Part shown: positions 1,496 to 13,297 of the stretch, piece by piece | Position numbering within the stretch: position 1 is the stretch's first letter | How the letters are laid out: each line of letters opens with the position of its first letter | NCBI GenBank assembly: GCA_965263035.1 | Contig: OZ253580.1 | Location: 3,328,001 to 3,392,000 of the forward strand | DNA length: 64,000 nt | Direction: 5' to 3' | Source: Acidobacteriota bacterium | GTDB taxonomy: Bacteria > Acidobacteriota > UBA6911 > RPQK01 > JAJDTT01 | Position numbers and translations under genes: made by a program | Notes under the pieces: model-generated | Seen by the model: only the letters and a program-made list of their open reading frames with translations | What the model was told of the DNA's origin: nothing | Database searches by the model: none

Positions 1496-2701
1496 ATGCA
1501 AGGCAAGAGGATAATCCGAACGATCCGGCTGCAGAAAATTCTCTCGTATGGTTCCTGGGATGCTGAGTTCCCATTGGAGCCGCTGAACGTTCTTATTGGG
1601 CCAAACGCTTCCGGGAAGTCGAACCTGATCGAAGTACTGTCGCTTCTCGCGGCGGCACCGACCAGGGATCTTCAAAAGCCGATTCGAGCCGGGGGAGGCG
1701 TTCGCGACTGGCTCTGGAAAGGTGCGCCACGACTCTCTACGGCAGCCGTGGAAGTTACGGTCGAATACTCTGCCGGACCACGCCTGAGATACAAGTTGTC
1801 ATTCACGGAAACCGGGTCGCGTTTCGAGCTCAGGAATGAGGCCGTAGAGAACGAGAGGCCTGCTCCGGGTAATAAGGATCCCTATTTCTACTATCGCTAT
1901 CAGGACGGCAATCCGGTTCTGAACGTCTTTACTAAGGACACTAAGGAACAGCCTCGGTCCGAGCGGCGTCTCACTCGGGAAGACGTGAAGCCCGACCAGT
2001 CGATTCTCTCCCAACGCCGGGACCCCGATTCATATCCCGAGTTGACGTATCTGGCTGACACATTCGAGCAGATGCGCTTCTATCGTGAATGGAATCTCGG
2101 ACGCGGCACCCCGACCCGCCTTCCACAGCAGGCCGATCTTCCCCAGGACTGGCTCCTGCAGGACGCTTCGAATCTCGGTCTCGTACTAAGCGATTTGCTG
2201 AACCGCCCCCCCGTAAAGCGCCGGATCCTGGACCGCTTGAGAGCCTTCTACCCGTACGTCGAGGATGTCGTTGCCACCATAGTAGGTGGCCCAGTGCAGA
2301 TATTTTTCCACGAAGAAGGCCTGCACTATCCGGTGCCTGCCACGCGGCTCTCTGACGGGAGCCTGCGGTATCTCTGCCTCATCGCCGTGCTTTGCCATCC
2401 CGATCCGCCGCCGGTCATCTGCATTGAGGAGCCGGAGATCGGCCTTCACCCCGACGTGATCCCGGAGGTGGCAAAATTTCTGATCGAGGCGTCTTCGCGT
2501 AGCCAGATCTTCGTCACGACACACTCCGACATTCTCGTCGATGCACTCACCGACACTCCGGATTCCGTGATCGTTTGTGAGAAATCCAACGGGGCGACGA
2601 GACTCCGCCGCCTCGAAGCAACGGAACTCAGACCTTGGCTGGAGAGATATCGGCTCGGCGAGCTCTGGTTGCGTGGAGATATCGGAGGAAATCGCTGGTG
2701 A
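1496..2701 (+). CDS. ABC-type ATPase (AAA_21/AAA_15 class), putative defence component
   Basis: Walker A GPNASGKSN, signature LSDGSLR, Walker B ICIEEPE, H-loop VTTHS, C-terminal LGELW..G.IGG. Confidence 0.85.
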   Translation: MQGKRIIRTIRLQKILSYGSWDAEFPLEPLNVLIGPNASGKSNLIEVLSLLAAAPTRDLQKPIRAGGGVRDWLWKGAPRLSTAAVEVTVEYSAGPRLRYKLSFTETGSRFELRNEAVENERPAPGNKDPYFYYRYQDGNPVLNVFTKDTKEQPRSERRLTREDVKPDQSILSQRRDPDSYPELTYLADTFEQMRFYREWNLGRGTPTRLPQQADLPQDWLLQDASNLGLVLSDLLNRPPVKRRILDRLRAFYPYVEDVVATIVGGPVQIFFHEEGLHYPVPATRLSDGSLRYLCLIAVLCHPDPPPVICIEEPEIGLHPDVIPEVAKFLIEASSRSQIFVTTHSDILVDALTDTPDSVIVCEKSNGATRLRRLEATELRPWLERYRLGELWLRGDIGGNRW

Positions 2702-3306
2702 GCGCCAAGCTCTTCGTGGAAGGTGGAGGCGGTAGCAAGACGCTGAAGACAGCGTGCCGCAAGGGTTTTCGGTTATTCATCGAAAAAGCGGGCTTGCGGG
2801 GAAGGATGCCCCGAATTGTGGCCTGCGGCAGCCGCAGGAATGCGTACCAGGACTTCACCAGAGAAAATGAGTCTCCCGCGCGTCAAGATGGCAACCCCCA
2901 TCTTCTCGTGGACTCCGAGGAGCCCGTAAGAGAAGCCGGGCCGTGGCAACATCTCAAGGTCCGCGACGGCTGGGATCGTCCTGACGGTGCGATGGACGAC
3001 CAATGCCACCTTATGGTGGAGGTCATGGAATCGTGGTTTTTGGCGGATCGTGAGGCTCTTGGGGCATTTTATGGTCAGGGCTTTCGCGGAACCGCACTTC
3101 CGCAAAATCAGCATGTCGAGCAGATTTCGAAACGGGATGTCCTGTACGACCTTGTCCAAGCCACTCGGCGTACACGAAAAGGTCCCTATGACAAGGGATC
3201 GCACGGCTTCGAGATCCTGGCGAGACTGGACCCATCGAAGGTCAGGAACGCGTCTCCTCACGCAGATCGATTTCTCGAAGCGCTTTCCGTGTTGGTAGAC
3301 AGTTAG
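2698..3306 (+). CDS. DUF4276-family TOPRIM-like protein
   Basis: GTGA overlap with the ATPase stop; FVEGGG, LLVDSE, MESWFLAD and YDKG motifs. Confidence 0.75.
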   Translation: MSAKLFVEGGGGSKTLKTACRKGFRLFIEKAGLRGRMPRIVACGSRRNAYQDFTRENESPARQDGNPHLLVDSEEPVREAGPWQHLKVRDGWDRPDGAMDDQCHLMVEVMESWFLADREALGAFYGQGFRGTALPQNQHVEQISKRDVLYDLVQATRRTRKGPYDKGSHGFEILARLDPSKVRNASPHADRFLEALSVLVDS

Positions 3307-3491
3307 GAGCCGCCGTCCCAACGCTGGATTCGTTTTGAGAGTGTAAATCAAAATGCGAAAACCCATGGCAGCATGTCCTCTTTCTATCCCTGACCGCTAA
3401 GTGGGCACTGAGCCGAAACCCGATGCCGCCAAACCGGACGTAACTGTCGAGGCAACCTGAGAACCCTGGGGTTGGAATGACGGCTCGTGCA

Positions 3492-3780
3492 GTGAGGATC
3501 ATTCGGCCGACCGAAGTTGAAGCCTGCGAGGGATACGGGATATGGCTCTGTTACTCAGACGGATCAGCCGGAGAGGTTGACCTGTCCCATCTGGTGGGGC
3601 GAGGGTGTTTCGGCTTGGGGTAAACCAGGGTGTCTCGAAAAAATCTATATCACGTCCCACGGAGCCATAGCGTGGGACGATGACTGTGAACTGTGGCCGG
3701 ATGCGCCGTATCTGGAACTTCCGGGCGAATCGTTCGACGAATTGCCCGTCGAAATCGACACGATAGTTCACGGCGCCTCA
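3492..3780 (+). pseudogene. Frameshifted DUF2442-like antitoxin remnant
   Basis: Frame A reads IRPTEVEACEGYGIWLCYSDGSAGEVDLSHLVGRG then stops; frame B continues AW..HGAIAWDDDCELWPDAPYLEL; frameshift near 3605. Confidence 0.6.
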
Positions 3781-3823
3781 CAAGGGCCGCCTCTATGGGA
3801 AAATTCCCGGACGGAGGAATGTC

Positions 3824-4063
3824 GTGACCGCCAAAGAATTGATACGGATTTTACAGAAATATCCGCAGGGGATGCGCGTCGTTGTGAATGGCTATGAGAC
3901 TGGGTTTGATGACCTTGAGGCGCGTCTTGTTTCTGTACGTGAAATACGCTTGAACGCTGGCGAAGAGTGGTGGGACGGACAACATCTCGCGGCGGAGGAC
4001 GCCCGGAAAAAAGGCAGTCCCTTCGTCAAAGCCTTGGTGCTTCCCCAGCCTGTGAACGCATAG
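3824..4063 (+). CDS. Small hypothetical protein (79 aa) immediately upstream of hsdM
   Basis: GGAGG RBS before GTG; ends 1 nt before the hsdM ATG. Confidence 0.6.
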
Positions 4064-4064
4064 C

Positions 4065-5660
4065 ATGACGCGCACCAAGCGGAAGTCCAATACCGGGGCC
4101 AACTTGGGCTACGAAGGCGAGCTCTGGAAGATGGCCGATGCCCTGCGCGGCAGCATGGACGCGGCCGAATACAAGCATGTCGTTCTCGGCCTTATCTTCC
4201 TGAAATACATCTCCGACGCGTTCGAGGAGATGCATGTCCGCCTGGAAGGCGAGCGGGACCAAGGCGCCGATCCGGAGGATCCGGACGAGTACCGTGCCCA
4301 GAACATCTTCTGGGTGTCGCCCGAGGCTCGCTGGACGAGTATCAAGGCCCGGGCCAGGCAATCGACGATCGGTAAGTTGGTCGACGATGCGATGTCCGGG
4401 ATCGAGCGGGACAACCCGGCGCTCAAGGGGGTGCTACCCAAGGAATATGCTCGACCTGCACTCGACAAGATCCGTCTTGGCCGGATTATTGATCTCGTCA
4501 GCAACATCATGGTGGGTGATGAGGATGCCCGGTCGAAGGACGTGCTGGGCCGCGTCTACGAGTACTTCCTGTCGCAGTTCGCCAGCGCCGAGGGCAAGAA
4601 GGGGGGCGAGTTCTACACCCCCCGCTGCATCGTCAAGCTGCTAGTGGAAATGCTGGAGCCCTATCAGGGCCGGGTCTACGACCCCTGCTGTGGGTCTTCG
4701 GGCATGTTCGTCCAGTCGGTCGAGTTCATCCGTGCCCACGCCACCGGCAATGGCAACGGCGGTCAGGTTTCGGAGGGCGGCAGAGCCGACATCTCGATCT
4801 ACGGGCAGGAGTCGAACTACACGACTTGGCGGCTCGCCAAGATGAACCTTGCCATTCGCGGAATCGAAGGGCAGATCGCTCACGGCGACAGCTTCCACAA
4901 CGACCGCCATCCCGACCTCAAGGCCGATTTCATACTGGCCAATCCACCTTTCAATGTCTCGGATTGGGGCGGTGCCCGTTTGGCCGATGACCAGCGCTGG
5001 CAATTCGGAAGGCCTCCCGTGCGGAACGCCAACTACGCTTGGGTCCAGCACATCGTCCACCATCTGACGCCGAACGGCATGGCCGGTTTCGTGCTCGCCA
5101 ACGGTTCCATGTCGTCCAACCAGTCCGGCGAGGGGAAGATCCGCAAGAGTCTCATCGAAGCGGATCTTGTGGACTGTATGGTGGCGCTGCCGGGCCAACT
5201 CTTCTATTCGACACAGATTCCCGCGTGTCTGTGGTTCCTTGCCCGAGACCGGAAAGGGGGCAAGTTCCGAGACCGGCACGGCGAAGTCCTGTTCATCGAT
5301 GCTCGCAAGCTGGGCCGTATGGTGGATCGCACCCACAGAGAGCTGACCGACGCGGATATCGGCCGAATCGCCGGCACCTACCATGCATGGCGAGGCGAGG
5401 ACGGCGCGGGTGACTATGCCGACGTGCCCGGCTTCTGCAAGAGCGCCGCGCTTAAGAAAGTGCGTCGGCACGGCCACGTCCTGACTCCCGGCCGTTATGT
5501 TGGGGTCGAGCCGCAGGAGGACGACGGCGAGCCGTTCGAGGACAAGATGAAACGGCTCGTCGCCAAACTTCGCGAGCAACAGGCGGAAGCTGCGAGGTTG
5601 GACGCAGGCATCAAGGCAAACTTGAAGGCGCTCGGGTTCCCGCTCGGAGGGGACCGCTGA
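4065..5660 (+). CDS. hsdM: Type I RM methyltransferase subunit M
   Basis: [25 protein letters not shown] (motif I), NPPF (motif IV, m6A). Confidence 0.97.
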
Positions 5661-6076
5661 TGATCGATTACGAAAAGTTCCGGATGTCGCTCAAACGCCT
5701 GGAGGAGCAGCACGAGAATTACCGGACACTCGAGACGTCACTACCTGGTTTGATTCAGGAAGCCGTCGCCGAATCGGTCATTCAGCGTTTCGAGACCTGC
5801 TACGACTGTTTGTGGAAAGTACTGAAGCGATACCTGATTTATGAGCTGGGCATCGCGAGTGTACCCAACAGTCCCAAACCCATCTTCAGATTGGCGAATG
5901 AGAACAATCTCTTCGCCGTATCGATTGAAGTCTGGCTGCGTTATGCCGACGCTCGAGTCGATACCACTCACGACTACGATGGCGAGAAAGCGAAAGCGTG
6001 CCTGGCCATCATGCCCGACTTCATCGACGATGCTATCGGCCTTTACCAAACCATGAGCGGATCGGTATGGGAGTAG
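5660..6076 (+). CDS. HEPN toxin, HI0074/HepT-like nucleotidyltransferase-substrate-binding family
   Basis: IQRFE, SPKPIFR and RVDTTHDY (RX4HXY) motifs; overlaps the hsdM stop. Confidence 0.85.
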   Translation: MIDYEKFRMSLKRLEEQHENYRTLETSLPGLIQEAVAESVIQRFETCYDCLWKVLKRYLIYELGIASVPNSPKPIFRLANENNLFAVSIEVWLRYADARVDTTHDYDGEKAKACLAIMPDFIDDAIGLYQTMSGSVWE

Positions 6077-7692
6077 ATCCAGCCATCGACATCACCACTG
6101 AACAGCGAGAGACGATTCTCGCTTTGCTAGAAGAACACTTGCCGGATACGGCCGCGTGGATCTATGGCTCGCGCGTGAAGTGGACCTCGCGACCACAATC
6201 CGACCTTGACTTGGTAGTCTTTGCAACCCCAGAGCAGGGTGGCCGAGTTGGTGATCTCCGGGAAGCGTTTGAGGAAAGTAACCTATCGTTCCGTGTGGAT
6301 CTATTCGTTTGGGACGATGTGCCGGAGGCATTCAGGAAGCAAATTGAACTGTCGCATGTGGTGCTGGTAACCGGAAAACGTACGCGCTTCGGCAAAGGGG
6401 TTCCGTTTGGAGCGAACAAGTGGCAACGAGTCGACCTTAACGATGTCGTAGAAATCTTCGACGGACCCCATGCCACACCGAAAAAGACTCGTAGTGGGCC
6501 GGTCTTCCTCGGCATTGGCAACCTGAGTTCCGGTCGCATTGATTTAACAAAAACGGAACATCTCAACGAGGAAGACTACGTACAGTGGACGCGTCGGGTA
6601 ACTCCTAGTCCAGGTGACGTCGTTTTCTCCTATGAGACTCGAATTGGCGAGGCTGCACTCATTCCTGCTGGCCTTCGGTGTTGCCTTGGTCGTCGGATGG
6701 GGTTGCTTCGTCCGAAGGGCGATAAGGTAGATCCTCGTTTCCTTCTTTACGCGTATTTGGGCCCCGGATTTCAGGACATATTGCGATCTCGAACGATCCA
6801 TGGCAGTACGGTGAATCGGATTCCATTGACCGAGATGGGGAAATTCCCAATCGAGATCCCGGCAACCATTCGCGAACAACGTAGGATTGCCCAAGTCCTA
6901 GGCACGCTGGACGATAAGATAGAATTGAGCCGGCGTATAAACGAGACGCTGGAGACGATGGCGTGGGCTTTGTTCAAGTCCTGGTTCGTCGATTTCGATC
7001 CCGTCCGAGCCAAAATGGACGACCGGGACCCCGGTCTGCCTCAACATCTTGCCGACCTCTTCCCCAACCGGCTCGTAGAGTCTGAACTTGGCGAGATCCC
7101 GGAGGGGTGGGAAGTGAAGACGCTCCGGGAATGTACTCACCTTACGATGGGACAGTCTCCCCCGGGACGCACCTACAACGAACGTGGTGAAGGTCTACCA
7201 TTCTTCCAGGGCCGAACTGACTTTGGCTTTCGTTATCCTTCGAATCGAAGATTCTGTTCTGTTCCAACACGAATTGCTCAGCCCGGGGATACGCTGGTCA
7301 GTGTGCGCGCCCCGGTCGGCGATATCAACATGGCCTGGGACCGTTGTTGTATTGGACGGGGCGTTGCTGCCCTGCGCCACAAGTCAGGTACAGCGTCCTT
7401 CACCTACTATTCTGCGCGGAAGATTCAGGTAGCCCTCCAAGAATACGAGCATACAGGGACAGTGTTTGGGGCCATCAATAAGGGCCAGTTTGAAGCCCTA
7501 TTGGTCATTGAACCACACACCAGAATCATTGACGCATTCGATGCATATTCTGGCGCTATAGATGCGAAGATCAAGTCGAATACTCGCGAATCCCGAGTTC
7601 TTGTGGCCCTCCGCGACACATTGTTACCGAAGCTGATCTCGGCCACAATTCGGGTTCCGGAGTCTCACAAACAAACCGGTGCGTTTGTATGA
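6067..7692 (+). CDS. hsdS: Minimal nucleotidyltransferase (MNT) domain fused to type I RM specificity subunit S
   Basis: N-terminal ~100 aa carry GSRVKWTSRPQSDLD (GSX10DXD) and FRVDL; then two TRDs with conserved EQRRIA..LDDKIE, LFKSWFVDFDPV, GEIPEGW and LRDTLLPKL; no stop between the parts. Confidence 0.9.
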   Translation: MGVDPAIDITTEQRETILALLEEHLPDTAAWIYGSRVKWTSRPQSDLDLVVFATPEQGGRVGDLREAFEESNLSFRVDLFVWDDVPEAFRKQIELSHVVLVTGKRTRFGKGVPFGANKWQRVDLNDVVEIFDGPHATPKKTRSGPVFLGIGNLSSGRIDLTKTEHLNEEDYVQWTRRVTPSPGDVVFSYETRIGEAALIPAGLRCCLGRRMGLLRPKGDKVDPRFLLYAYLGPGFQDILRSRTIHGSTVNRIPLTEMGKFPIEIPATIREQRRIAQVLGTLDDKIELSRRINETLETMAWALFKSWFVDFDPVRAKMDDRDPGLPQHLADLFPNRLVESELGEIPEGWEVKTLRECTHLTMGQSPPGRTYNERGEGLPFFQGRTDFGFRYPSNRRFCSVPTRIAQPGDTLVSVRAPVGDINMAWDRCCIGRGVAALRHKSGTASFTYYSARKIQVALQEYEHTGTVFGAINKGQFEALLVIEPHTRIIDAFDAYSGAIDAKIKSNTRESRVLVALRDTLLPKLISATIRVPESHKQTGAFV

Positions 7693-7799
7693 GCAGCCCC
7701 CTCGCTGCCCTGAGGGACGTTTTGCTGCCAAAGCTGATGTCGGGCGAAATCCGCACCCTCGCCGCCAATAGACAGGCTGAGGCAATTGCACGAGCATAG
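7689..7799 (+). other. 36-codon ORF duplicating the HsdS C-terminal conserved helix (MSSPLAALRDVLLPKLMSGEIR...)
   Basis: ATGA overlap with the hsdS stop; direct translation. Confidence 0.6.
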
Positions 7800-7840
7800 T
7801 TACGGGCGTCGAGAAGCACCACCTCGAGGAAGTTGTAGCC

Positions 7841-8713
7841 ATGAGCGCCAGCAACCAGATAAAGGTCGGGGATGCGATTAGGCACCTTCTCTCGACGAGT
7901 AGAACCGATCCTTCGTACGAGCGCGAGAGCTACGCTGAGATGCGAGCTTTTCGCGATATCCATAAGCTGGCTTGCGAAGGGAACATCCGAATCTCTGGCC
8001 GTGCGTTCGGTGATGCTTATCCAAAGCTAATTTCCCCTGAAACGCTTCGCGGTTTGCAGCCCATCGATATCTGCGTTCCCCGCTCGTGTCGAGCCCCAGA
8101 AGGGCACGTTTTCGGATTAGGGCCAGTGAATCCTGACACCACTCGGGAACACTCCGACGGGGGCGGTGTCTACGAGGATCTGCTCGTACACAGCCAGGAC
8201 ATCTACGAGTATTGGCCTATGTTAGGCGACCACGAGGTCGAAGAAGACTTCCTGAACAAGGAATTCGAGATACCTAATGTTCAAAGATTGCCCGTCGAAT
8301 CCCGCGTAGCCAAGATTATTGAGAGCCGGTTGAATGAGGTGGGCGTTGTTTTGGCCAATCGCGCGTATCTTTCCGCCATTGTCCTGTGCGGGAGTGTTCT
8401 GGAGGGGGTTCTGCTCGGAGCGGCTAAAAAGGATCCAGAAAAATTCAACCGGTCTCCAGCCTCGCCAAAACGTGACGGCAAGGTGAAATCATTGCGCGAG
8501 TGGGGACTGGCAGATTTAATCAATGTCGCGTGCGACATCGGTGTGTTAAAGCCTGATGTGAAAGAGTTTAGCCACGGACTCCGTCATTTTAGAAATTATA
8601 TCCATCCATATGAGCAGATGGCCTCGAACTTCACACCTGACGAACACACGGTCAAAGTTTGCTTCCAGGTTCTCAAGGCCGCACTTGCAAGTGTAGCCGG
8701 GGAGCGACTATAG
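7841..8713 (+). CDS. Hypothetical protein with C-terminal HEPN-like domain
   Basis: AIVLCGSVLEGVL helix and LRHFRNYIHP motif; low GC. Confidence 0.6.
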   Translation: MSASNQIKVGDAIRHLLSTSRTDPSYERESYAEMRAFRDIHKLACEGNIRISGRAFGDAYPKLISPETLRGLQPIDICVPRSCRAPEGHVFGLGPVNPDTTREHSDGGGVYEDLLVHSQDIYEYWPMLGDHEVEEDFLNKEFEIPNVQRLPVESRVAKIIESRLNEVGVVLANRAYLSAIVLCGSVLEGVLLGAAKKDPEKFNRSPASPKRDGKVKSLREWGLADLINVACDIGVLKPDVKEFSHGLRHFRNYIHPYEQMASNFTPDEHTVKVCFQVLKAALASVAGERL

Positions 8714-8802
8714 GCCATGTCTTAACGATTTGAATTAGAAATGCATCCGGAACTTACTCGTTCGTTCTTTCTGGACGAGTCCGAATAGATAATGAAGTCG
8801 CG

Positions 8803-11800
8803 ATGACCACAATCTCAGAATTCACCGTTGAGACCGCCACACTTGGTTGGCTTGAGACTCTCGGCTGGGACGTTGCTCACGGTCCCGACATCGCTCCGTA
8901 TACGGTGGGTTCCGAGCGCGACGACTACGGTGAGGTCGTGCTTCACCGAAGGCTGCGTGAGAACCTCGCGATCCTCAATCCTGACCTTCCTTTCGAGGCA
9001 CTGGAAGATGCATTTCGTAGGGTGACTCGGTCGGTGGGGCCGACGCTGGACATTCGCAACCGTGTCTACCACCGGATGGTAGTAGAGGGTGTGACGGTGG
9101 AATATCGTGCGGCTAACGGCGCGATCCGCGGGGCGCAGGTCCGTGTCATCGACTTCGAGAACCCTGACAGCAATGACTGGCTGGCTGTCAATCAGTTCAC
9201 CGTTACGGAAGACAAAAACACCCGTCGGCCGGACATCGTGCTGTTCGTCAACGGTCTGCCGTTGGGCGTGATTGAGCTCAAGAACCCGACGGACGAGGAC
9301 GCGACGATCTGGACTGCTTGGCAGCAACTCCAGACCTACAAGGCGGAACTGCCCGCCTTGTTCTCCATGAACGAGATTCTCATGGTCTCCGATGGGATCG
9401 AGGCCCGTATCGGATCTCTCACGGCCGGGCGGGAGTGGTTCAAGCCTTGGCGGACAATCTCTGGCGAATCCTTGGCCGACCCGCACATGACCGAGCTTCA
9501 GGTGATGCTGGAGGGCACCTGTACGCACCACCGCTTCCTCTCCCTGGTGCGTGACTTCATCGTGTTCGAGGACGACGGAAGCGGCGCTCTGGTCAAGAAG
9601 ATGGCCGGCTATCATCAGTTCCACGCGGTGCAGGTGGCCGTCACCGAAACCCTGCGTGCCACCCGATTGCAGCGCAAGGTAGACCGGATCGCCGAAGCCC
9701 GCGGCCGCTACGAGTCAGGCCGAAAACCCGGCGGCAAACTTGGGGACCGGCGCATCGGCGTGGTCTGGCACACTCAGGGCTCGGGCAAGAGCCTGACCAT
9801 GGCCTTCTATGCCGGGGCCATCATCCGCGAGCCGGCCATGGCGAACCCCACAATCGTCGTCTTGACCGATCGCAACGACCTGGACGACCAACTCTTCGGA
9901 ACCTTCTCCCGCTGCCATGACCTCTTGCGCCAGCCACCCGTGCAGGCTGAGAGCCGAACCGACCTGCGGCGGAGATTGTCCGTCGAGTCCGGAGGAGTCG
10001 TATTCACCACCATCCAGAAGTTCTTCCCCGAAGAGAAGAGGGACACCCACCCGACCCTCTCCCAGCGCCGCAACATCGTTGTGATCGCGGACGAGGCCCA
10101 TCGCAGCCAGTACGATTTCATCGACGGGTTCGCCCGCCACATGCGCGACGCGCTGCCCCGAGCGTCCTTCGTCGGATTCACCGGCACCCCTATCGAGCTT
10201 CAGGACGCCAACACCCGTGCGGTGTTCGGCGACTACATCAGCATCTACGACATCCAGCGCGCCGTGGCGGACGGGGCCACCGTCCCCATCTACTACGAGA
10301 GCCGACTCGCCAAGTTGTCCCTGGATGAGATCGAGCGGCCCCGCATCGACCCGGAGTTCGAGGAGGCCACAGAGGGTGAGGAGGTCCAGCGCAAGGAGAA
10401 GCTCAAGACCCGATGGGCGCAGCTGGAAGCCATCGTCGGGACGGAGAAACGGCTGGGTCTCATCGCCCAGGACATCGTAGACCACTTCGAAAAACGCCTG
10501 GAAGCCTTGACCGGCAAAGCCATGGTGGTGTGCATGAGCCGGCGGATCTGCGTCGAGCTCTATCGAGAGCTGGCACGCCTGCGCCCGGACTGGCATCACG
10601 ACGACGATCGCAAGGGACGCCTCAAGGTCGTGATGACCGGGTCCGCGTCCGATCCGCTCGACTGGCAACCGCACATTCGCAACAAACCCCGGCGCGAGGC
10701 GCTCGCCAACCGCTTCCGCGACGCTGGTGATGAACTGCAAATGGTCCTGGTTCGAGACATGTGGCTCACCGGCTTCGATGCACCGAGCCTGCACACCATG
10801 TATGTGGACAAGCCCATGCGGGGCCACGGCCTGATGCAGGCCATCGCCCGGGTCAACCGGGTGTTCAAGGACAAGCCGGGCGGTCTGGTCGTGGATTACC
10901 TGGGCCTCGCCCATGAGCTCAAGCGAGCCTTGGCCACCTACACCGAAAGCGGCGGCACCGGCGAGACGGCGCTCGATCAGTCGGAAGCGGTGGCCGTGAT
11001 GATGGAGAAGCACGAGGTCTGCTGCGGCCTGTTCCACGGCTTCGACCGGTCCAGGTGGATCGACGGCACTCCTCAGGAAAGGCTGGGACTGCTTCCTGCC
11101 GCACAGGAACACATACTTTCGTTGGAAAACGGCAAGGACCGATGTGTGAAGTCGGTGCGTGAGCTCTCTCAGGCCTTCGCCCTCGCCGTCCCGCATGAGG
11201 ACGCGATTCGGATCCGGGATGACGTGGCGTTCTTTCAAGCCGTGCAGTCTGTGCTGTCCAAGCGTTCTCCAGCCGAAATGCGGTCCCAGGAAGAGCTGGA
11301 CCACGCCGTGCGCCAGATCATTTCCCGTGCGGTGACCTCCGAGGGCGTGGTCGACATCTTCGCCGCCGCCGGTCTGGACAAGCCTGATATTTCCATCCTC
11401 TCCGATGAGTTCCTGGCCGAGGTGCGGGGGATGCCCCATCGCAACCTCGCCGTGGAGCTGCTTCAAAAGCTGCTCAAAGGGGAACTGGTCACCCGGCGCC
11501 GGAAGAACGTGGTCCAGGCGCGTTCGTTCGCCCAGATGCTGGAACAGACCCTGCGCCGGTACCAGAATCGGGCCATCGAGGCGGCACAGGTGATCGAGGA
11601 GTTGATCCAGTTGGCGCGGGAACTGCGCGAGGCGGACGCACGTGGAGAGGAGCTCGGGTTGTCGGAAGACGAGCTGGCTTTCTACGACGCCCTCGAGACC
11701 AACGACAGCGCGGTACAGGTCCTGGGCGACGAGACTCTGCGCACCATCGCCCGGGAGTTGGTCGAGACCGTCCGCAACAACGTCACCATCGACTGGACGC

Positions 11801-11943
11801 TACGCGAGAACGTACGGGCGCATCTGCGCGTCCTGGTCAAGCGCACGTTGCGCCGGTATGGCTATCCGCCCGACAAGCAGGAGAAAGCGACCCGGACCGT
11901 CCTGGAGCAGGCCGAGGTCCTGTCCGCTGGCTGGGCATCCTGA
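8803..11943 (+). CDS. hsdR: Type I RM restriction/motor subunit R
   Basis: [17 protein letters not shown] nuclease motif, [32 protein letters not shown]. Confidence 0.97.
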
Positions 11944-12076
11944 GCCGTTGCCGACGGTAGCCTGCCTCGAAAACGAACCAGGTTCGGCATTTGTGCTGCC
12001 CGTCGGCTGGCATGAGAAATCCACCACCGATTGACAGTCACAGAGCATCTTTTCCATTTACTCAATACAAAGAGCA

Positions 12077-12102
12077 GAATTACTCATTGTGTTGAGTAAT
12101 TC
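12077..12102. promoter_or_regulatory. Palindromic operator-like site GAATTACTCA-N6-TGAGTAATTC
   Basis: Perfect 10-bp inverted arms at the start of the AAA_14 gene; extra TTACTCA half-site near 12058. Confidence 0.45.
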
Positions 12103-13297
12103 GGGATACACGCGGCCTCACACCACAGATTTGCACTCCCGTCTGCGCGAGCCGCGCCGTTTCCTCCAGATCGTCACCGGGGCTCGCCAGGTCCGCAAGA
12201 CGACCCTCGTCACGCAAGTCGCCGAACGGTGCGGATTGCCCCATCACTACGCCAGCGCCGACGAGCCGACCTTGCGCGGCCCGGATTGGATCGCCGGACA
12301 GTGGGACGCCGCGCGGCTCCTGGCTGGCGGCGCCGGCCCCGAGGGTGCTCTTCTCGTCTTGGACGAGGTCCAAAAGGTTCCCAACTGGACCGAGGCCGTC
12401 AAACGCCTGTGGGACGAAGACACGCGGCGAGGGCCCCGACTCAAGGTGGTGCTGACCAGTTCCGCGCCGCTTCTGATCGGCCGGGGCTCGACCGAAAGTC
12501 TCGCCGGGCGTTTCGAACTCCTGCACCTGCCGCACTGGGGATTCCCCGAAATGCAGACCGCCTTCGGATGGTCCCTGGACGAATTCCTGTTCTATGGCGC
12601 CTATCCCGGAGCGGCTCCGCTGATCACAGAGCCGAATCGCTGGTCACGCTACATCCGCGACTCGCTCATCGAAACCACCATCTCCCGAGATGTCCTGTTG
12701 CTCTCCCGGGTGGACAAACCGGCCCTGCTGCGCCGGCTGTTCAACTTGGGCTGTGCGTATTCAAGCCAGATCTTTTCCTACACGAGGATGCTGGGACAGC
12801 TCCAGGATGCCGGGAACACCACGACCCTGGCCCACTACCTCGATCTGCTGGCGGGTGCGGGAATGCTGACCGGTTTGCAGCAGTACGCCGGCGCTGCCGC
12901 CCGGCGACGTAGCTCCAGCCCGAAGCTGCAAGTCCTCAATACCGCCCTGATGACTTCCGGGTCCGGCCTCACCCTGGAGCAGGCCCGCACGGATCGTGAG
13001 TTCTGGGGACGTCTGGTCGAATCCGCGGTGGAAGCTCATCTGGCAAATGCGGCTGCTGCAGGCGCCTGTCAAATCTTCTACTGGCGGGACCGCAACCGGG
13101 AGGTCGATTTCGTCGTGAGCGTGGGACGGACGTTGACGGCGATTGAAGTCAAGAGCGGCCGCACTCAGCAGTCGCTGCCTGGAATGGCCGCGTTTGCCAA
13201 TGCATTTCAGCCAATCCGACGCTTGCTGATCGGATGGGACGCCATCGCCGTGGGCGAGTTCCTGTCCAAACTTGTGGAACACTGGGTGGGGCCCTGA
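12089..13297 (+). CDS. AAA_14 ATPase + DUF4143 (PD-(D/E)XK) protein, possibly degenerate
   Basis: GARQVRKT (Walker A with G>R), LDEVQ, ESLAGR, EVDFV..AIEVKSG. Confidence 0.8.
   Translation: MLSNSGYTRPHTTDLHSRLREPRRFLQIVTGARQVRKTTLVTQVAERCGLPHHYASADEPTLRGPDWIAGQWDAARLLAGGAGPEGALLVLDEVQKVPNWTEAVKRLWDEDTRRGPRLKVVLTSSAPLLIGRGSTESLAGRFELLHLPHWGFPEMQTAFGWSLDEFLFYGAYPGAAPLITEPNRWSRYIRDSLIETTISRDVLLLSRVDKPALLRRLFNLGCAYSSQIFSYTRMLGQLQDAGNTTTLAHYLDLLAGAGMLTGLQQYAGAAARRRSSSPKLQVLNTALMTSGSGLTLEQARTDREFWGRLVESAVEAHLANAAAAGACQIFYWRDRNREVDFVVSVGRTLTAIEVKSGRTQQSLPGMAAFANAFQPIRRLLIGWDAIAVGEFLSKLVEHWVGP

Follow-up and report, generated by a model that had tools for sequence, protein, structure and literature searches.

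An HI0073/HI0074-type HEPN/MNT module in a type I restriction-modification operon, with the MNT domain fused in frame to the specificity subunit

Introduction

Toxin- and defence-related genes may be lodged within type I restriction-modification (RM) operons, which raises the question of whether they are merely carried there or are functionally tied to the RM enzyme. The question arises in an unusual form in an Acidobacteriota genome, in which a HEPN gene sits between hsdM and hsdS and its partner, a minimal nucleotidyltransferase (MNT), forms the N-terminal part of the specificity subunit HsdS. We asked whether this fusion is real, how widely it is distributed and what it might mean for the control of a putative toxin.

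Results

Organization of the operon

The window, i.e. the whole 64,000-nt stretch of DNA analysed, harbours the following features, all on the + strand.

4065..5660, +: hsdM, type I methyltransferase subunit, 531 aa (Pfam N6_Mtase 1.3e-104, HsdM_N 3.6e-26)
5660..6076, +: HEPN gene of the HI0074 / NTase_sub_bind type, 138 aa, putative RNase toxin (R99-x4-H104-x-Y106; PF08780, E 6.7e-22)
6067..7692, +: MNT-HsdS fusion, single ORF, 541 aa
6067..6372, +: MNT domain, fusion residues 1-102, with G34-S35, D46-x-D48 and D78 (PF18765 2.8e-9, PF01909 4.4e-5)
6373..6414, +: linker, fusion residues 103-116, variable in length and sequence (AF2 pLDDT < 50; gappy alignment)
6415..7692, +: HsdS body, residues 117-541, comprising TRD1, central conserved helix, TRD2 and C-terminal helix (PADLOC Specificity_I 3.3e-89)
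7701..7799, +: 3'-terminal remnant of another hsdS (..LAALRDVLLPKLMSGEIR..), out of frame with hsdS, read from the sequence
7841..8713, +: orf290, second HEPN-fold protein with a DUF4145-like C-terminal domain (structure ranking, see below)
8803..11943, +: hsdR, type I restriction subunit, 1046 aa (Pfam HSDR_N 7.3e-46, SWI2_SNF2 1.8e-78, T1RH-like_C 4e-137)

With hsdM and hsdR encoded alongside, the hsdS of the window belongs to a type I RM operon. As the initial annotation had proposed, the HEPN gene lies between hsdM and hsdS and overlaps both: the hsdM stop codon TGA (5658-5660) and the HEPN ATG (5660) have one base in common, and the HEPN stop codon TAG (6074-6076) ends 10 nt into the MNT-hsdS ORF, which starts with the ATG at 6067. 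A GTG at 5998 was considered as a longer start for that ORF and set aside; homologues start with MG[VLI], and the conserved ATG is that at 6067. These stop/start overlaps suggest that hsdM, the HEPN gene and MNT-hsdS would form one translationally coupled unit. A scan of positions 3300-12200 revealed two promoter-like sites, compared with 3.0 expected, and nine terminator-like sites, compared with 7.6 expected. Our own HsdS profile matches positions 7662-7763, within an ORF at 7533-7796, and the leftover 3' end located just past the hsdS stop fits an earlier swap of the hsdS segment.

Characterization of the HEPN protein and the MNT domain

Among proteins of solved structure, the HEPN protein is nearest to HI0074 (PDB 1jog; E 7.2e-8) and the MNT domain to HI0073 (PDB 1no5; E 1.3e-13), both from Haemophilus influenzae and belonging to the same Pfam and NCBIfam families. 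The HEPN protein matches NTase_sub_bind and exceeds the cut-off of NCBIfam HI0074 (TIGR01987; 58.3 bits for a cut-off of 55.8). DUF86 is absent from its listed Pfam matches, and no model of the PADLOC library recognizes it. It consists of a single domain, with no PrrC/RloC-type ABC NTPase domain at its N-terminus, and its gene is the sole PF08780 gene of the 6.2-Mb genome. The RVDTTHDY sequence reported by the initial annotation is indeed an intact RX4HXY motif (R99, H104 and Y106), of which the first two residues are invariant across 32 aligned relatives. All three are retained in 38 of 43 HEPN relatives, the motif being degenerate in the other five, and the acceptor tyrosine is present in the window protein.

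Fusion residues 16-102 match Polbeta (PF18765) and HI0073, and the MNT domain also matches PF01909. The assignment of an MNT with an intact GSX10DXD motif to the first ~100 residues of HsdS also stands: the translation shows G34-S35...D46-L-D48, followed by D78 as a third acidic residue, and 90% or more of the 54 related MNT domains retain the GS and DxD elements. With 35.7 bits for a cut-off of 60, the domain remains below the NCBIfam MntA equivalog NF047752, and the pair is thus not MntA/HepT proper.

In the AF2 model, residues 6-101 form a separately folded domain, followed by the low-confidence linker; the corresponding region of the homologue alignment (columns about 219-262) is gappy and unconserved. 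Residues 116-536 make up a complete two-TRD HsdS, with a full-length PADLOC Specificity_I match over 117-535, matches to Pfam Methylase_S (2.1e-17) and to PDB 5ybb/3okg (5e-37), and two long predicted helices at 268-308 and 485-525. A complex prediction with two HEPN copies and fusion residues 1-118 gave no answer (score 0.01 for a mark of 0.32) and has no bearing on whether they bind.

Rejection of an assembly artefact

A stop codon or a frameshift between MNT and HsdS, the first objection raised by the initial annotation, was not seen. Run X6 of another study yielded a 951-nt contig that spans positions 6049-6999, junction included, with zero differences, and same-genus genomes at 82-85% DNA identity also carry a single fused ORF. 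Because the fusion ORF recurs in 44 loci (see below), in congeners and in the assembly from another study, we ruled out a frameshift or missing-stop artefact. Contigs from the RNA libraries X16 and X17 stem from a relative about 91% alike, for which DNA carry-over is possible, and the RNA library X18 yielded an identical piece of 156 nt, too short to show expression.

Distribution of MNT-HsdS fusions

Of 80 related HsdS loci, 44 encode fused MNT-HsdS proteins, and in 39 of these 44 a HEPN gene is found directly upstream (< 120 nt), the co-occurrence for which the initial annotation had suggested searching. In 33 of the 39, there is an overlap of 4, 8 or 10 nt between the HEPN stop and the nearest in-frame MNT-hsdS start. 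The 33 related loci devoid of MNT have no HEPN gene, and no HEPN without an MNT was found among the 80 loci. Four fused loci lack a HEPN match in the locus and have nevertheless kept intact MNT catalytic motifs, so that the domain could have a HEPN-independent role there. In these loci, HEPN never occurs without MNT, while MNT sometimes occurs without HEPN, as would be anticipated if the two are toxin and antitoxin. Similarly, all 30 sampled PF08780 genes of the phylum have an adjacent MNT, fused to HsdS in only 4 of the 30. Relative to the congener locus L111, dN/dS amounts to 0.15 for HEPN, 0.11 for hsdM, 0.14 for hsdR and 0.08 for MNT, the last a rough value because its dS is saturated (1.6). 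Strict co-occurrence, motif conservation and purifying selection support the initial view that HEPN and MNT form a module of the toxin-antitoxin type.

On a larger scale, 1464 protein clusters of HsdS size (297-947 aa) contain this MNT domain, and an HsdS domain is also present in 118 of the best 120 of them. The MNT domain is conserved across relatives while TRD1 is swapped, and the fusion has survived repeated TRD exchange. hsdR is found within the 6-kb flank of 29 of the 44 fused loci. In MNT-less relatives, the hsdM-hsdS gap harbours Fic/DOC, Abi_2, Schlafen/AlbA_2, YhcG or RhuM-type genes. We also identified single-protein MNT-HEPN fusions among relatives of the window (L032, L052 and P0195).

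In the MNT tree, the window domain falls in a clade whose 31 rows include 30 fused forms, with an SH-aLRT support of 97% and members under 9 phylum labels. Another clade (B) interleaves 10 fused and 6 free forms, and the starred branches force at least five gains or losses of the fusion. Where a locus has two MNTs, these belong to different clades in all six cases (L002, L005, L010, L032, L059 and L071). The MNT-HsdS fusion is a conserved, recurrent and horizontally spread architecture rather than a peculiarity of this genome; its persistence is suggestive, though no proof of an advantage.

Other arrangements of the pair exist in cultured bacteria. The fused form is found on Zymomonas mobilis pZMOB01, an RM-embedded but unfused pair on Acetobacter pasteurianus pAP1342-3, where the free MNT gene and hsdS share 8 nt, and a free-standing pair outside any RM operon on Z. 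mobilis pZA1001. In a decayed locus of the same genus as the window (L113), hsdS and most of hsdR are gone while HEPN and a free MNT are kept, indicating that the HsdS body is not needed. The deletion of hsdSp in Zymomonas ZM4 by Lal et al. (PMC8432527) was considered as a natural test; no ZM4 plasmid was among the matches to either half, and the text of that study is therefore uninformative on the fusion architecture.

Discussion

Comparison with known systems

HI0073 is a free 114-aa protein, whereas the MNT of the window makes up the N-terminal part of a 541-aa HsdS in an RM operon. Among the papers listed for HI0073/HI0074, none gave functional data on that pair or dealt with toxicity or nucleotidylation in its branch. 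In the type VII HepT/MntA systems (Shewanella SO_3166/SO_3165 and the HEPN-MNT pairs of Aphanizomenon and Legionella), an RX4HXY HEPN and a GSX10DXD MNT are encoded by adjacent co-transcribed genes, as in the window, and by analogy tyrosine nucleotidylation would be the mechanism expected here (texts of PMC7641770 and PMC11586414). However, HepT is a DUF86 protein whereas the window HEPN is of the PF08780 type, the window MNT falls short of the MntA equivalog, the toxin gene comes first and the antitoxin is fused to HsdS. The text of PMC3710099 likewise describes MNT as usually 5' in MNT-HEPN dyads, in contrast with the toxin-first order of the window. In FhepTA, the MNT antitoxin is also part of another polypeptide, which fixes the stoichiometry (text of PMC13000451); there, it is fused to its own toxin, while in the window it is borne by an unrelated DNA-recognition subunit and the toxin is free.

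The type Ic RM-gated anticodon nuclease PrrC of EcoprrI, also a HEPN RNase encoded within a type I hsd operon, is a conceptual model of RM-coupled abortive infection (texts of PMC3710099 and PMC12707154). PrrC carries an ABC NTPase regulator within the same protein and is kept silent by non-covalent association, whereas the window system has no ATPase and carries an enzymatic antitoxin domain on HsdS. TgvAB of Vibrio cholerae VPI-2, PIN toxin-antitoxin modules and embedded HEC candidates are accessory genes between hsd genes, as in the window (texts of PMC11411939, PMC5499597 and bioRxiv 10.1101/2024.01.29.577857); their components are separate proteins, none of them described in those texts as fused to HsdS.

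We found no description of the MNT-HsdS fusion in the running text of the literature searched. The texts of PMC3710099, PMC3632139, PMC4621449, PMC12839542, PMC13000451, PMC11586414, PMC11411939, PMC12707154, PMC5499597, PMC8432527, PMC11543638 and bioRxiv 10.1101/2024.01.29.577857 and 10.1101/2024.10.26.620412 do not mention it. RM_TRD is used as a label in Figure 5 of PMC3710099, and this architecture could be present in Additional file 1 of that paper or among the candidates tabulated by Payne et al. HEPN/MNT modules are a known kind; the fusion of the antitoxin to HsdS, which occurs in many bacterial phyla, was not found described in the texts covered. Where source names are given for these fusions, they read 'restriction endonuclease subunit S' or 'type I restriction enzyme S subunit'; with such HsdS-only names and no PADLOC model for the HEPN, the module is invisible to current defence-system annotation.

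Possible roles of the fusion

On balance, we favour the view that a HI0073/HI0074-type HEPN/MNT toxin-antitoxin-like module has been embedded between hsdM and hsdS, its antitoxin fused in frame to hsdS, and that the tethered MNT nucleotidylates the HEPN tyrosine, making toxin silencing dependent on HsdS production. Judging from its family, the HEPN protein would be a metal-independent RNase (R99-x4-H104). The MNT, held at the HsdS N-terminus by a disordered linker of ~14 residues, would silence it by transferring an NMP to Y106, as extrapolated from HepT/MntA and further type VII systems (texts of PMC7641770, PMC11586414 and PMC13000451). With a flexibly tethered MNT modifying the HEPN tyrosine, silencing would be tied to hsdS expression and contingent on a continued supply of intact HsdS. 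The primary consequence would be addiction, i.e. stabilization of the hsdM-HEPN-hsdS segment, and a possible second one an abortive-infection backup upon disturbance of the RM complex or of the supply of HsdS.

A less likely alternative, the one put forward by the initial annotation, is that the HsdS-borne MNT holds HEPN silent on the RM complex, and that inhibition of the complex by phage anti-restriction proteins or loss of HsdS releases the RNase for abortive infection, as in PrrC/EcoprrI. From the domain order, the covalent tether would place the antitoxin in every M2S1 or R2M2S1 complex, and the frequent proximity of hsdR to fused loci agrees with this. The repeated changes between fused and free forms, with persistence of the fusion over 9 phylum labels, are also in its favour. 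The toxin- and defence-type genes in the hsdM-hsdS gap of MNT-less relatives fit the idea of a multi-pronged RM defence (text of PMC3710099), and the text of PMC12707154 names PrrC and PARIS as RM guardians. However, the sequence reveals no sensor or release mechanism, and the HEPN protein has no ABC ATPase regulator of the PrrC kind. Moreover, type VII neutralization is covalent (HepT/MntA; text of PMC7641770), so that removing the antitoxin alone does not reactivate toxin that is already modified. Finally, HEPN coexists with a free MNT in L113 and in free-standing pairs, making the RM complex dispensable for silencing. It is also unlikely, although conceivable, that the RM complex serves as an antitoxin carrier: a HEPN dimer would be docked and kept nucleotidylated on M2S1 or R2M2S1, and abortive infection would set in once unmodified HEPN is set free by DNA mimics or further anti-restriction factors, or because unassembled HsdS is lost or degraded. 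The free-standing pZA1001 pair, L113 and the four HEPN-less fused loci point to an autonomous toxin-antitoxin module. Addiction, which the initial annotation also mentioned, matches these data at least as well as guarding of the RM complex, and our choice of the former draws on inference and on one decayed locus, L113.

Quite improbably, in our view, the fusion is without any coupling role: an autonomous toxin-antitoxin pair would have hitch-hiked into the operon, and a frameshift at the overlap of the MNT stop and the hsdS start would have fused the two genes, the fused state then persisting since fission is mutationally hard. The 8-nt overlap in pAP1342-3 indicates that a small frameshift would be enough to fuse them, and the disordered, unconserved linker, the mixture of forms in clade B and the low proportion of fusions among the sampled PF08780 loci of the phylum agree with such an origin. 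Nevertheless, the almost uniformly fused clade of the window MNT, which spans 9 phylum labels, the 1464 clusters and the endurance of the fusion through TRD exchange speak against this reading.

It is highly improbable that HEPN and MNT are instead a two-subunit nucleotidyltransferase, as in the original HI0073/HI0074 reading, with another target for RM such as an RM subunit, DNA or a phage protein: the Pfam and NCBIfam label of the HEPN ('nucleotidyltransferase substrate binding' subunit), the intact MNT motifs of the HEPN-less fused loci and the lack of a toxicity study on this branch among the papers listed are compatible with it, but a mere substrate-binding subunit would have no need for the Rx4H motif and acceptor tyrosine kept in most HEPNs, and related HEPN/MNT pairs are experimentally established toxin-antitoxin systems (texts of PMC4621449, PMC7641770 and PMC11586414).

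The conserved covalent link between antitoxin and specificity subunit points to type I RM as a concrete cellular partner of the HEPN/MNT module, and the fused, embedded-unfused and free versions on pZMOB01, pAP1342-3 and pZA1001, all from cultured bacteria that are non-pathogenic, offer a clean experimental handle. If the tether gates the RNase, it would represent a second RM-guard principle next to PrrC; if the carrier reading is true, an RM guard made from a toxin-antitoxin pair would exist in more than a thousand protein clusters of many phyla. If the fusion merely addicts the cell to hsdS, it would be a route for a non-addictive type I RM operon to post-segregational stability.

A second HEPN-fold protein in the operon

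The product of orf290, which is missing from the congeners' loci, has 1654 relatives at E <= 1e-3. It matches Pfam DUF4145 at E 0.12 only, and weak DUF4145 matches were found in 7 of 35 family members. Foldseek gave no match at E <= 0.001. Its C-terminal domain (residues about 149-290) harbours invariant R248, R251, N252 and H255 and is modelled by AF2 with a pLDDT > 90, and the top 25 rows of a VIA-align search are all HEPN structures (Z 10.3-6.5).

The HEPN gene and the MNT-hsdS gene in their operon

From the ORF listing and Pfam searches, a type I RM operon occupies positions 4065-11943 of the plus strand of the window. It is bordered by a HEC-01 pair and a PDC-S01 gene and therefore sits in a defence island.

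Genes of the RM operon and the defence genes on either side
1496-3306: HEC-01 pair, ABC-type ATPase AAA_21 and DUF4276 (PADLOC, 3e-171 and 2e-78)
4065-5660, plus strand: hsdM (N6_Mtase 1.3e-104, HsdM_N 3.6e-26)
5660-6076, plus strand: HEPN gene, 138 aa (PF08780, TIGR01987)
6067-7692, plus strand: MNT-hsdS, 541 aa (PF18765 and PADLOC Specificity_I)
7841-8713, plus strand: orf290, 290 aa (second HEPN fold)
8803-11943, plus strand: hsdR (HSDR_N, SWI2_SNF2, T1RH-like_C)
12089-13297: PDC-S01 gene, AAA_14 and DUF4143 (2e-166)

All the elements described in the initial annotation, namely a HEPN gene overlapping both hsdM and hsdS, its RX4HXY motif and an MNT domain carried by HsdS, were recovered with the same boundaries. 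One base of a TGATG sequence is common to the hsdM stop and the HEPN start, and the HEPN stop codon (TAG, 6074-6076) lies 10 nt within the MNT-hsdS ORF (ATGGGAGTAG). By family, the product of the HEPN gene (138 aa) is of the HI0074/NTase_sub_bind type (PF08780, E 6.7e-22; TIGR01987, 58.3 bits with a cut-off of 55.8; PDB entry 1jog, E 7.2e-8), and its RVDTTHDY motif corresponds to R99, H104 and Y106. None of the PADLOC models covers this HEPN. The MNT domain of the fusion matches PF18765 over residues 16-102 (E 2.8e-9) and HI0073 in the PDB (E 1.3e-13), with G34-S35, D46-x-D48 and D78 as catalytic residues; it is not indicated in the database annotation. In the AlphaFold2 model, linker residues 103-116 are disordered (pLDDT < 50), showing a predicted flexible tether between MNT and HsdS. 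The HsdS part is complete, with two target recognition domains (TRDs; PADLOC Specificity_I, 3.3e-89) and helices at 268-308 and 485-525.

Directly after the hsdS stop codon, the 3' remnant of another hsdS (~7701-7799) in a different frame encodes the conserved C-terminal helix. The G+C content is 0.61-0.65 in hsdM and hsdR as against 0.49-0.57 from the HEPN gene through orf290 (dip from 5600 to 8800). The remnant and the dip suggest that the middle of the operon may have been exchanged in the past. A similar hsdS fragment is found in another of the loci compared, L028. Just 5' of hsdM, the window also harbours a 79-aa ORF (3824-4063) of no known family, a look-alike of which is found in locus L068 (5638-5961) between hsdM and MNT-hsdS, the usual position of the HEPN gene. 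In L053, a HEC-01 pair is directly upstream of MNT-HsdS, with no hsdM or HEPN alongside.

Between hsdS and hsdR, orf290 codes for a further protein with a HEPN fold, similar to DUF4145. A search with its C-terminal domain gave 1654 relatives at E <= 1e-3, R248, R251, N252 and H255 being invariant in the family, and the Pfam DUF4145 signature is weakly matched (E 0.12 for the window protein; 7/35 family members). The model is all-helical and confident, and its 25 best VIA-align matches are all HEPN structures, with Z scores of 10.3-6.5 as against 5.3 in the next unrelated row, although values under ~13 are weak for helical bundles. The comparison of loci revealed no orf290 in the congener loci L111 and L112.

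Distribution of the MNT-HsdS architecture

The MNT-HsdS architecture is widespread. Among the best 120 matches of a search with the whole fusion, 107 combine Methylase_S with an NTase family (PF18765, PF01909 or PF22600), and the family lists of the remaining 13 show Methylase_S alone. Three proteins listed as having Methylase_S only (P0008, P0062 and P0080) nevertheless display an MNT domain in the alignment. In an alignment of 28 whole-fusion matches, MNT is conserved and TRD1 is unrelated between sequences. A search scoring only the MNT part (residues 1-112; proteins of 297-947 aa; E <= 1e-5) yielded 1464 clusters from 1645 candidates, with Methylase_S in 118 of the best 120 matches.

In two of the three same-genus genomes compared, the hsdM-HEPN-MNT segment is 82-85% identical in DNA sequence to that of the window, as far as the end of MNT (6344-6368); their TRD1 is wholly divergent, and hsdR is again about 83-85% identical. 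In sequencing run X6, which belongs to a different study from that of the best holder, a 951-nt contig corresponds to 6049-6999 with zero differences and takes in the junction of MNT with HsdS as well as the place where the HEPN stop and the MNT start overlap. The stop or frameshift separating the two domains, which the initial annotation had named as refuting evidence, is therefore absent: the fusion is common to relatives, congeners and the identical X6 contig.

Variants of the architecture were also seen. In L052 (5554-7665), HEPN, MNT and HsdS form a single ORF. Two MNT domains precede HsdS in L010 (5671-7530), P0028 and P0109, and MNT-HEPN fusions adjoin MNT-HsdS in L032 (5953-8417) and P0195. 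According to precomputed Pfam lists, some MNT-HsdS proteins of 650-840 aa, including P0056, P0090, P0093, P0122, P0130 and P0148, harbour additional endonuclease-type domains, DUF559 (PF04480) with PF18741, or GIY-YIG (PF01541).

Co-occurrence of HEPN and MNT

We collected 80 loci by scanning genome contigs with two conserved HsdS peptides, blind to the presence of MNT, and searched all their stop-to-stop ORFs with profiles made from the window proteins. MNT is in the same ORF as HsdS in 44 of them. The initial annotation had called for a test of co-occurrence between such fusions and an upstream HI0074-type HEPN, which was found less than 120 nt upstream in 39 of the 44 fused loci. The 33 MNT-less loci have no HEPN at all, the upstream sequence being 600 nt or longer in 28 of them. 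In L002, the order is HEPN, free MNT and MNT-HsdS. The profile search gave no HEPN match in the other four fused loci (L014, L029, L053 and L068), which have other genes upstream. In the last three loci (L045, L055 and L077), HEPN is accompanied by MNT and HsdS as two distinct proteins. Among 401 genomes sampled from the window's phylum, 37 have PF08780; the 30 PF08780 loci returned, the window's included, all have an adjacent MNT, in both gene orders, fused to HsdS in four cases. HEPN without MNT was never seen, and MNT or MNT-HsdS without HEPN sometimes was, an asymmetry that would be expected if HEPN is the harmful partner.

Signs of function and selection

Among 43 HEPN proteins no shorter than 100 aa, 38 have the complete R, H and Y set of RX4HXY; the other five read RHH, QHY, RHC, VPN and RLY. 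GS and DxD are kept in at least 90% of 54 MNT domains. Comparison of the window with congener L111 (NG86 method) showed purifying selection on the operon genes, with dN/dS values of 0.15 for HEPN (dS 0.71), 0.11 for hsdM, 0.14 for hsdR and 0.08 for the MNT domain, a rough value given its saturated dS of 1.65. An overlap of 4, 8 or 10 nt between the HEPN stop and the nearest in-frame MNT-HsdS start is present at 33 of 39 loci, the start choice being heuristic. In all six loci with two MNTs (L002, L005, L010, L032, L059 and L071), the pair comes from different clades, the pattern expected of co-resident pairs that must avoid cross-reaction.

Contigs from a relative ~91% alike, which span the hsdM end, HEPN and MNT (5514/5532-6316), were found in metatranscriptomic runs (X16 and X17), and one of them continues into a different TRD. 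In X18, an RNA library with the label sponge metagenome, there is a 156-nt piece identical to 5866-6021. Neither occurrence is proof of transcription.

Free, embedded and fused forms

An MNT tree was built with 82 domains (49 fused and 33 free) over only 97 alignment columns, leaving out L081 (a duplicate of the window) and matches with fewer than 70 profile positions or E > 1e-5. Because the first 80 loci were picked by HsdS similarity, free forms are under-sampled in it. The window's clade comprises 31 rows, 30 of them fused (SH-aLRT 97%), under nine phylum labels (Acidobacteriota, Latescibacterota, Binatota, Pseudomonadota, Nitrospirota, Verrucomicrobiota, Spirochaetota, Rhodothermota and Thermodesulfobacteriota). 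A second clade is mixed, with 10 fused and 6 free domains. Parsimony counts 11 switches between fused and free states, at least five of which are forced by well-supported branches.

States of the HEPN/MNT pair in cultured bacteria
Free-standing pair: Zymomonas mobilis pZA1001 (L116, NC_013356.1), HEPN-MNT beside a HicB gene, no hsd gene in the annotation of the stretch examined
RM-embedded, unfused: Acetobacter pasteurianus pAP1342-3 (L115, NZ_CP021512.1), hsdM, HEPN, free MNT, hsdS, hsdR
Fused: Z. mobilis ATCC 10988 pZMOB01 (L114 and L117, NC_017180.1), hsdM, HI0074-family gene, MNT-HsdS, hsdR

All junctions overlap in pAP1342-3, where the MNT stop lies 8 nt within hsdS. The pZMOB01 fusion, with MNT at its N-terminus, is annotated 'restriction endonuclease subunit S'. 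Free, embedded and fused forms presumably represent a series across cultured bacteria, and all three states are directly testable in these non-pathogens. In the decayed RM locus of a third congener (L113, 4649-7068), hsdS is lost, hsdR is reduced to a fragment and hsdM is internally deleted; the HEPN (141 aa) is still intact, and MNT (123 aa) persists as a free protein.

As a general landing site, the hsdM-hsdS junction takes up accessory genes coding for toxins or defence functions. In MNT-less relatives, the two genes lie 11-134 nt apart at 10 loci and 0.6-2.5 kb apart at 14. Nine ORFs from eight long-gap loci were scanned, revealing Fic/DOC (L013, L016, L042 and L075), the YhcG/DUF1016 nuclease (L036 and L073), and Schlafen/AlbA_2, RhuM and Abi_2 in one ORF each (the other loci scanned being L011 and L069). 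A tenth ORF, from fused locus L029, matched no family.

Relationship to known systems and possible roles

The window pair is a HEPN/MNT module of the HI0073/HI0074 branch. We did not file it as MntA/HepT proper because its MNT, at 35.7 bits, falls below the NCBIfam MntA equivalog cut-off of 60 and because PF08780, not DUF86, is the family of its HEPN. The architecture is also unlike that of PrrC, as the window HEPN has no ABC ATPase. Many links between HEPN and RM are reported, in which the fusion partners of RM-associated HEPN domains are nuclease, helicase and ATPase subunits and methylases are not among them; we found no MNT fused to an S subunit in the links described there (PMC3710099). 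In the article text covered by our literature search, we found no description of an MNT-HsdS fusion.

Our analysis establishes the domain order, the flexible tether, the integrity of catalytic and acceptor residues, a strict dependence between the partners, the stop/start overlaps and purifying selection. By analogy with characterised type VII relatives, Shewanella HepT/MntA (PMC7641770), Legionella HEPN-MNT (PMC11586414) and the fused FhepTA (PMC13000451), HEPN would be an RNase, which MNT would silence through nucleotidylation of Y106. Antitoxin activity could then be supplied by the HsdS protein only. Among the possible consequences, we rank first a stabilisation of the hsdM-HEPN-hsdS segment, i.e., addiction, because this type of pair is also an ordinary free-standing module and because L113 keeps HEPN and free MNT after RM decay. 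The coupling of HEPN release to the RM complex proposed in the initial annotation, which would make the pair a guard or backup of RM, comes second: no trigger is visible in the sequence, and L113 and the free pairs show silencing to be possible without the HsdS body or the RM complex. The part of that interpretation which stands is a pair of TA type whose antitoxin is joined to HsdS, on the strength of motifs, co-occurrence and selection; a neutral fusion ranks third, and a nucleotidyltransferase unrelated to TA fourth. The intact MNT motifs in the four fused loci with no HEPN match could mean that the toxin was lost recently or that MNT also has a role independent of HEPN.
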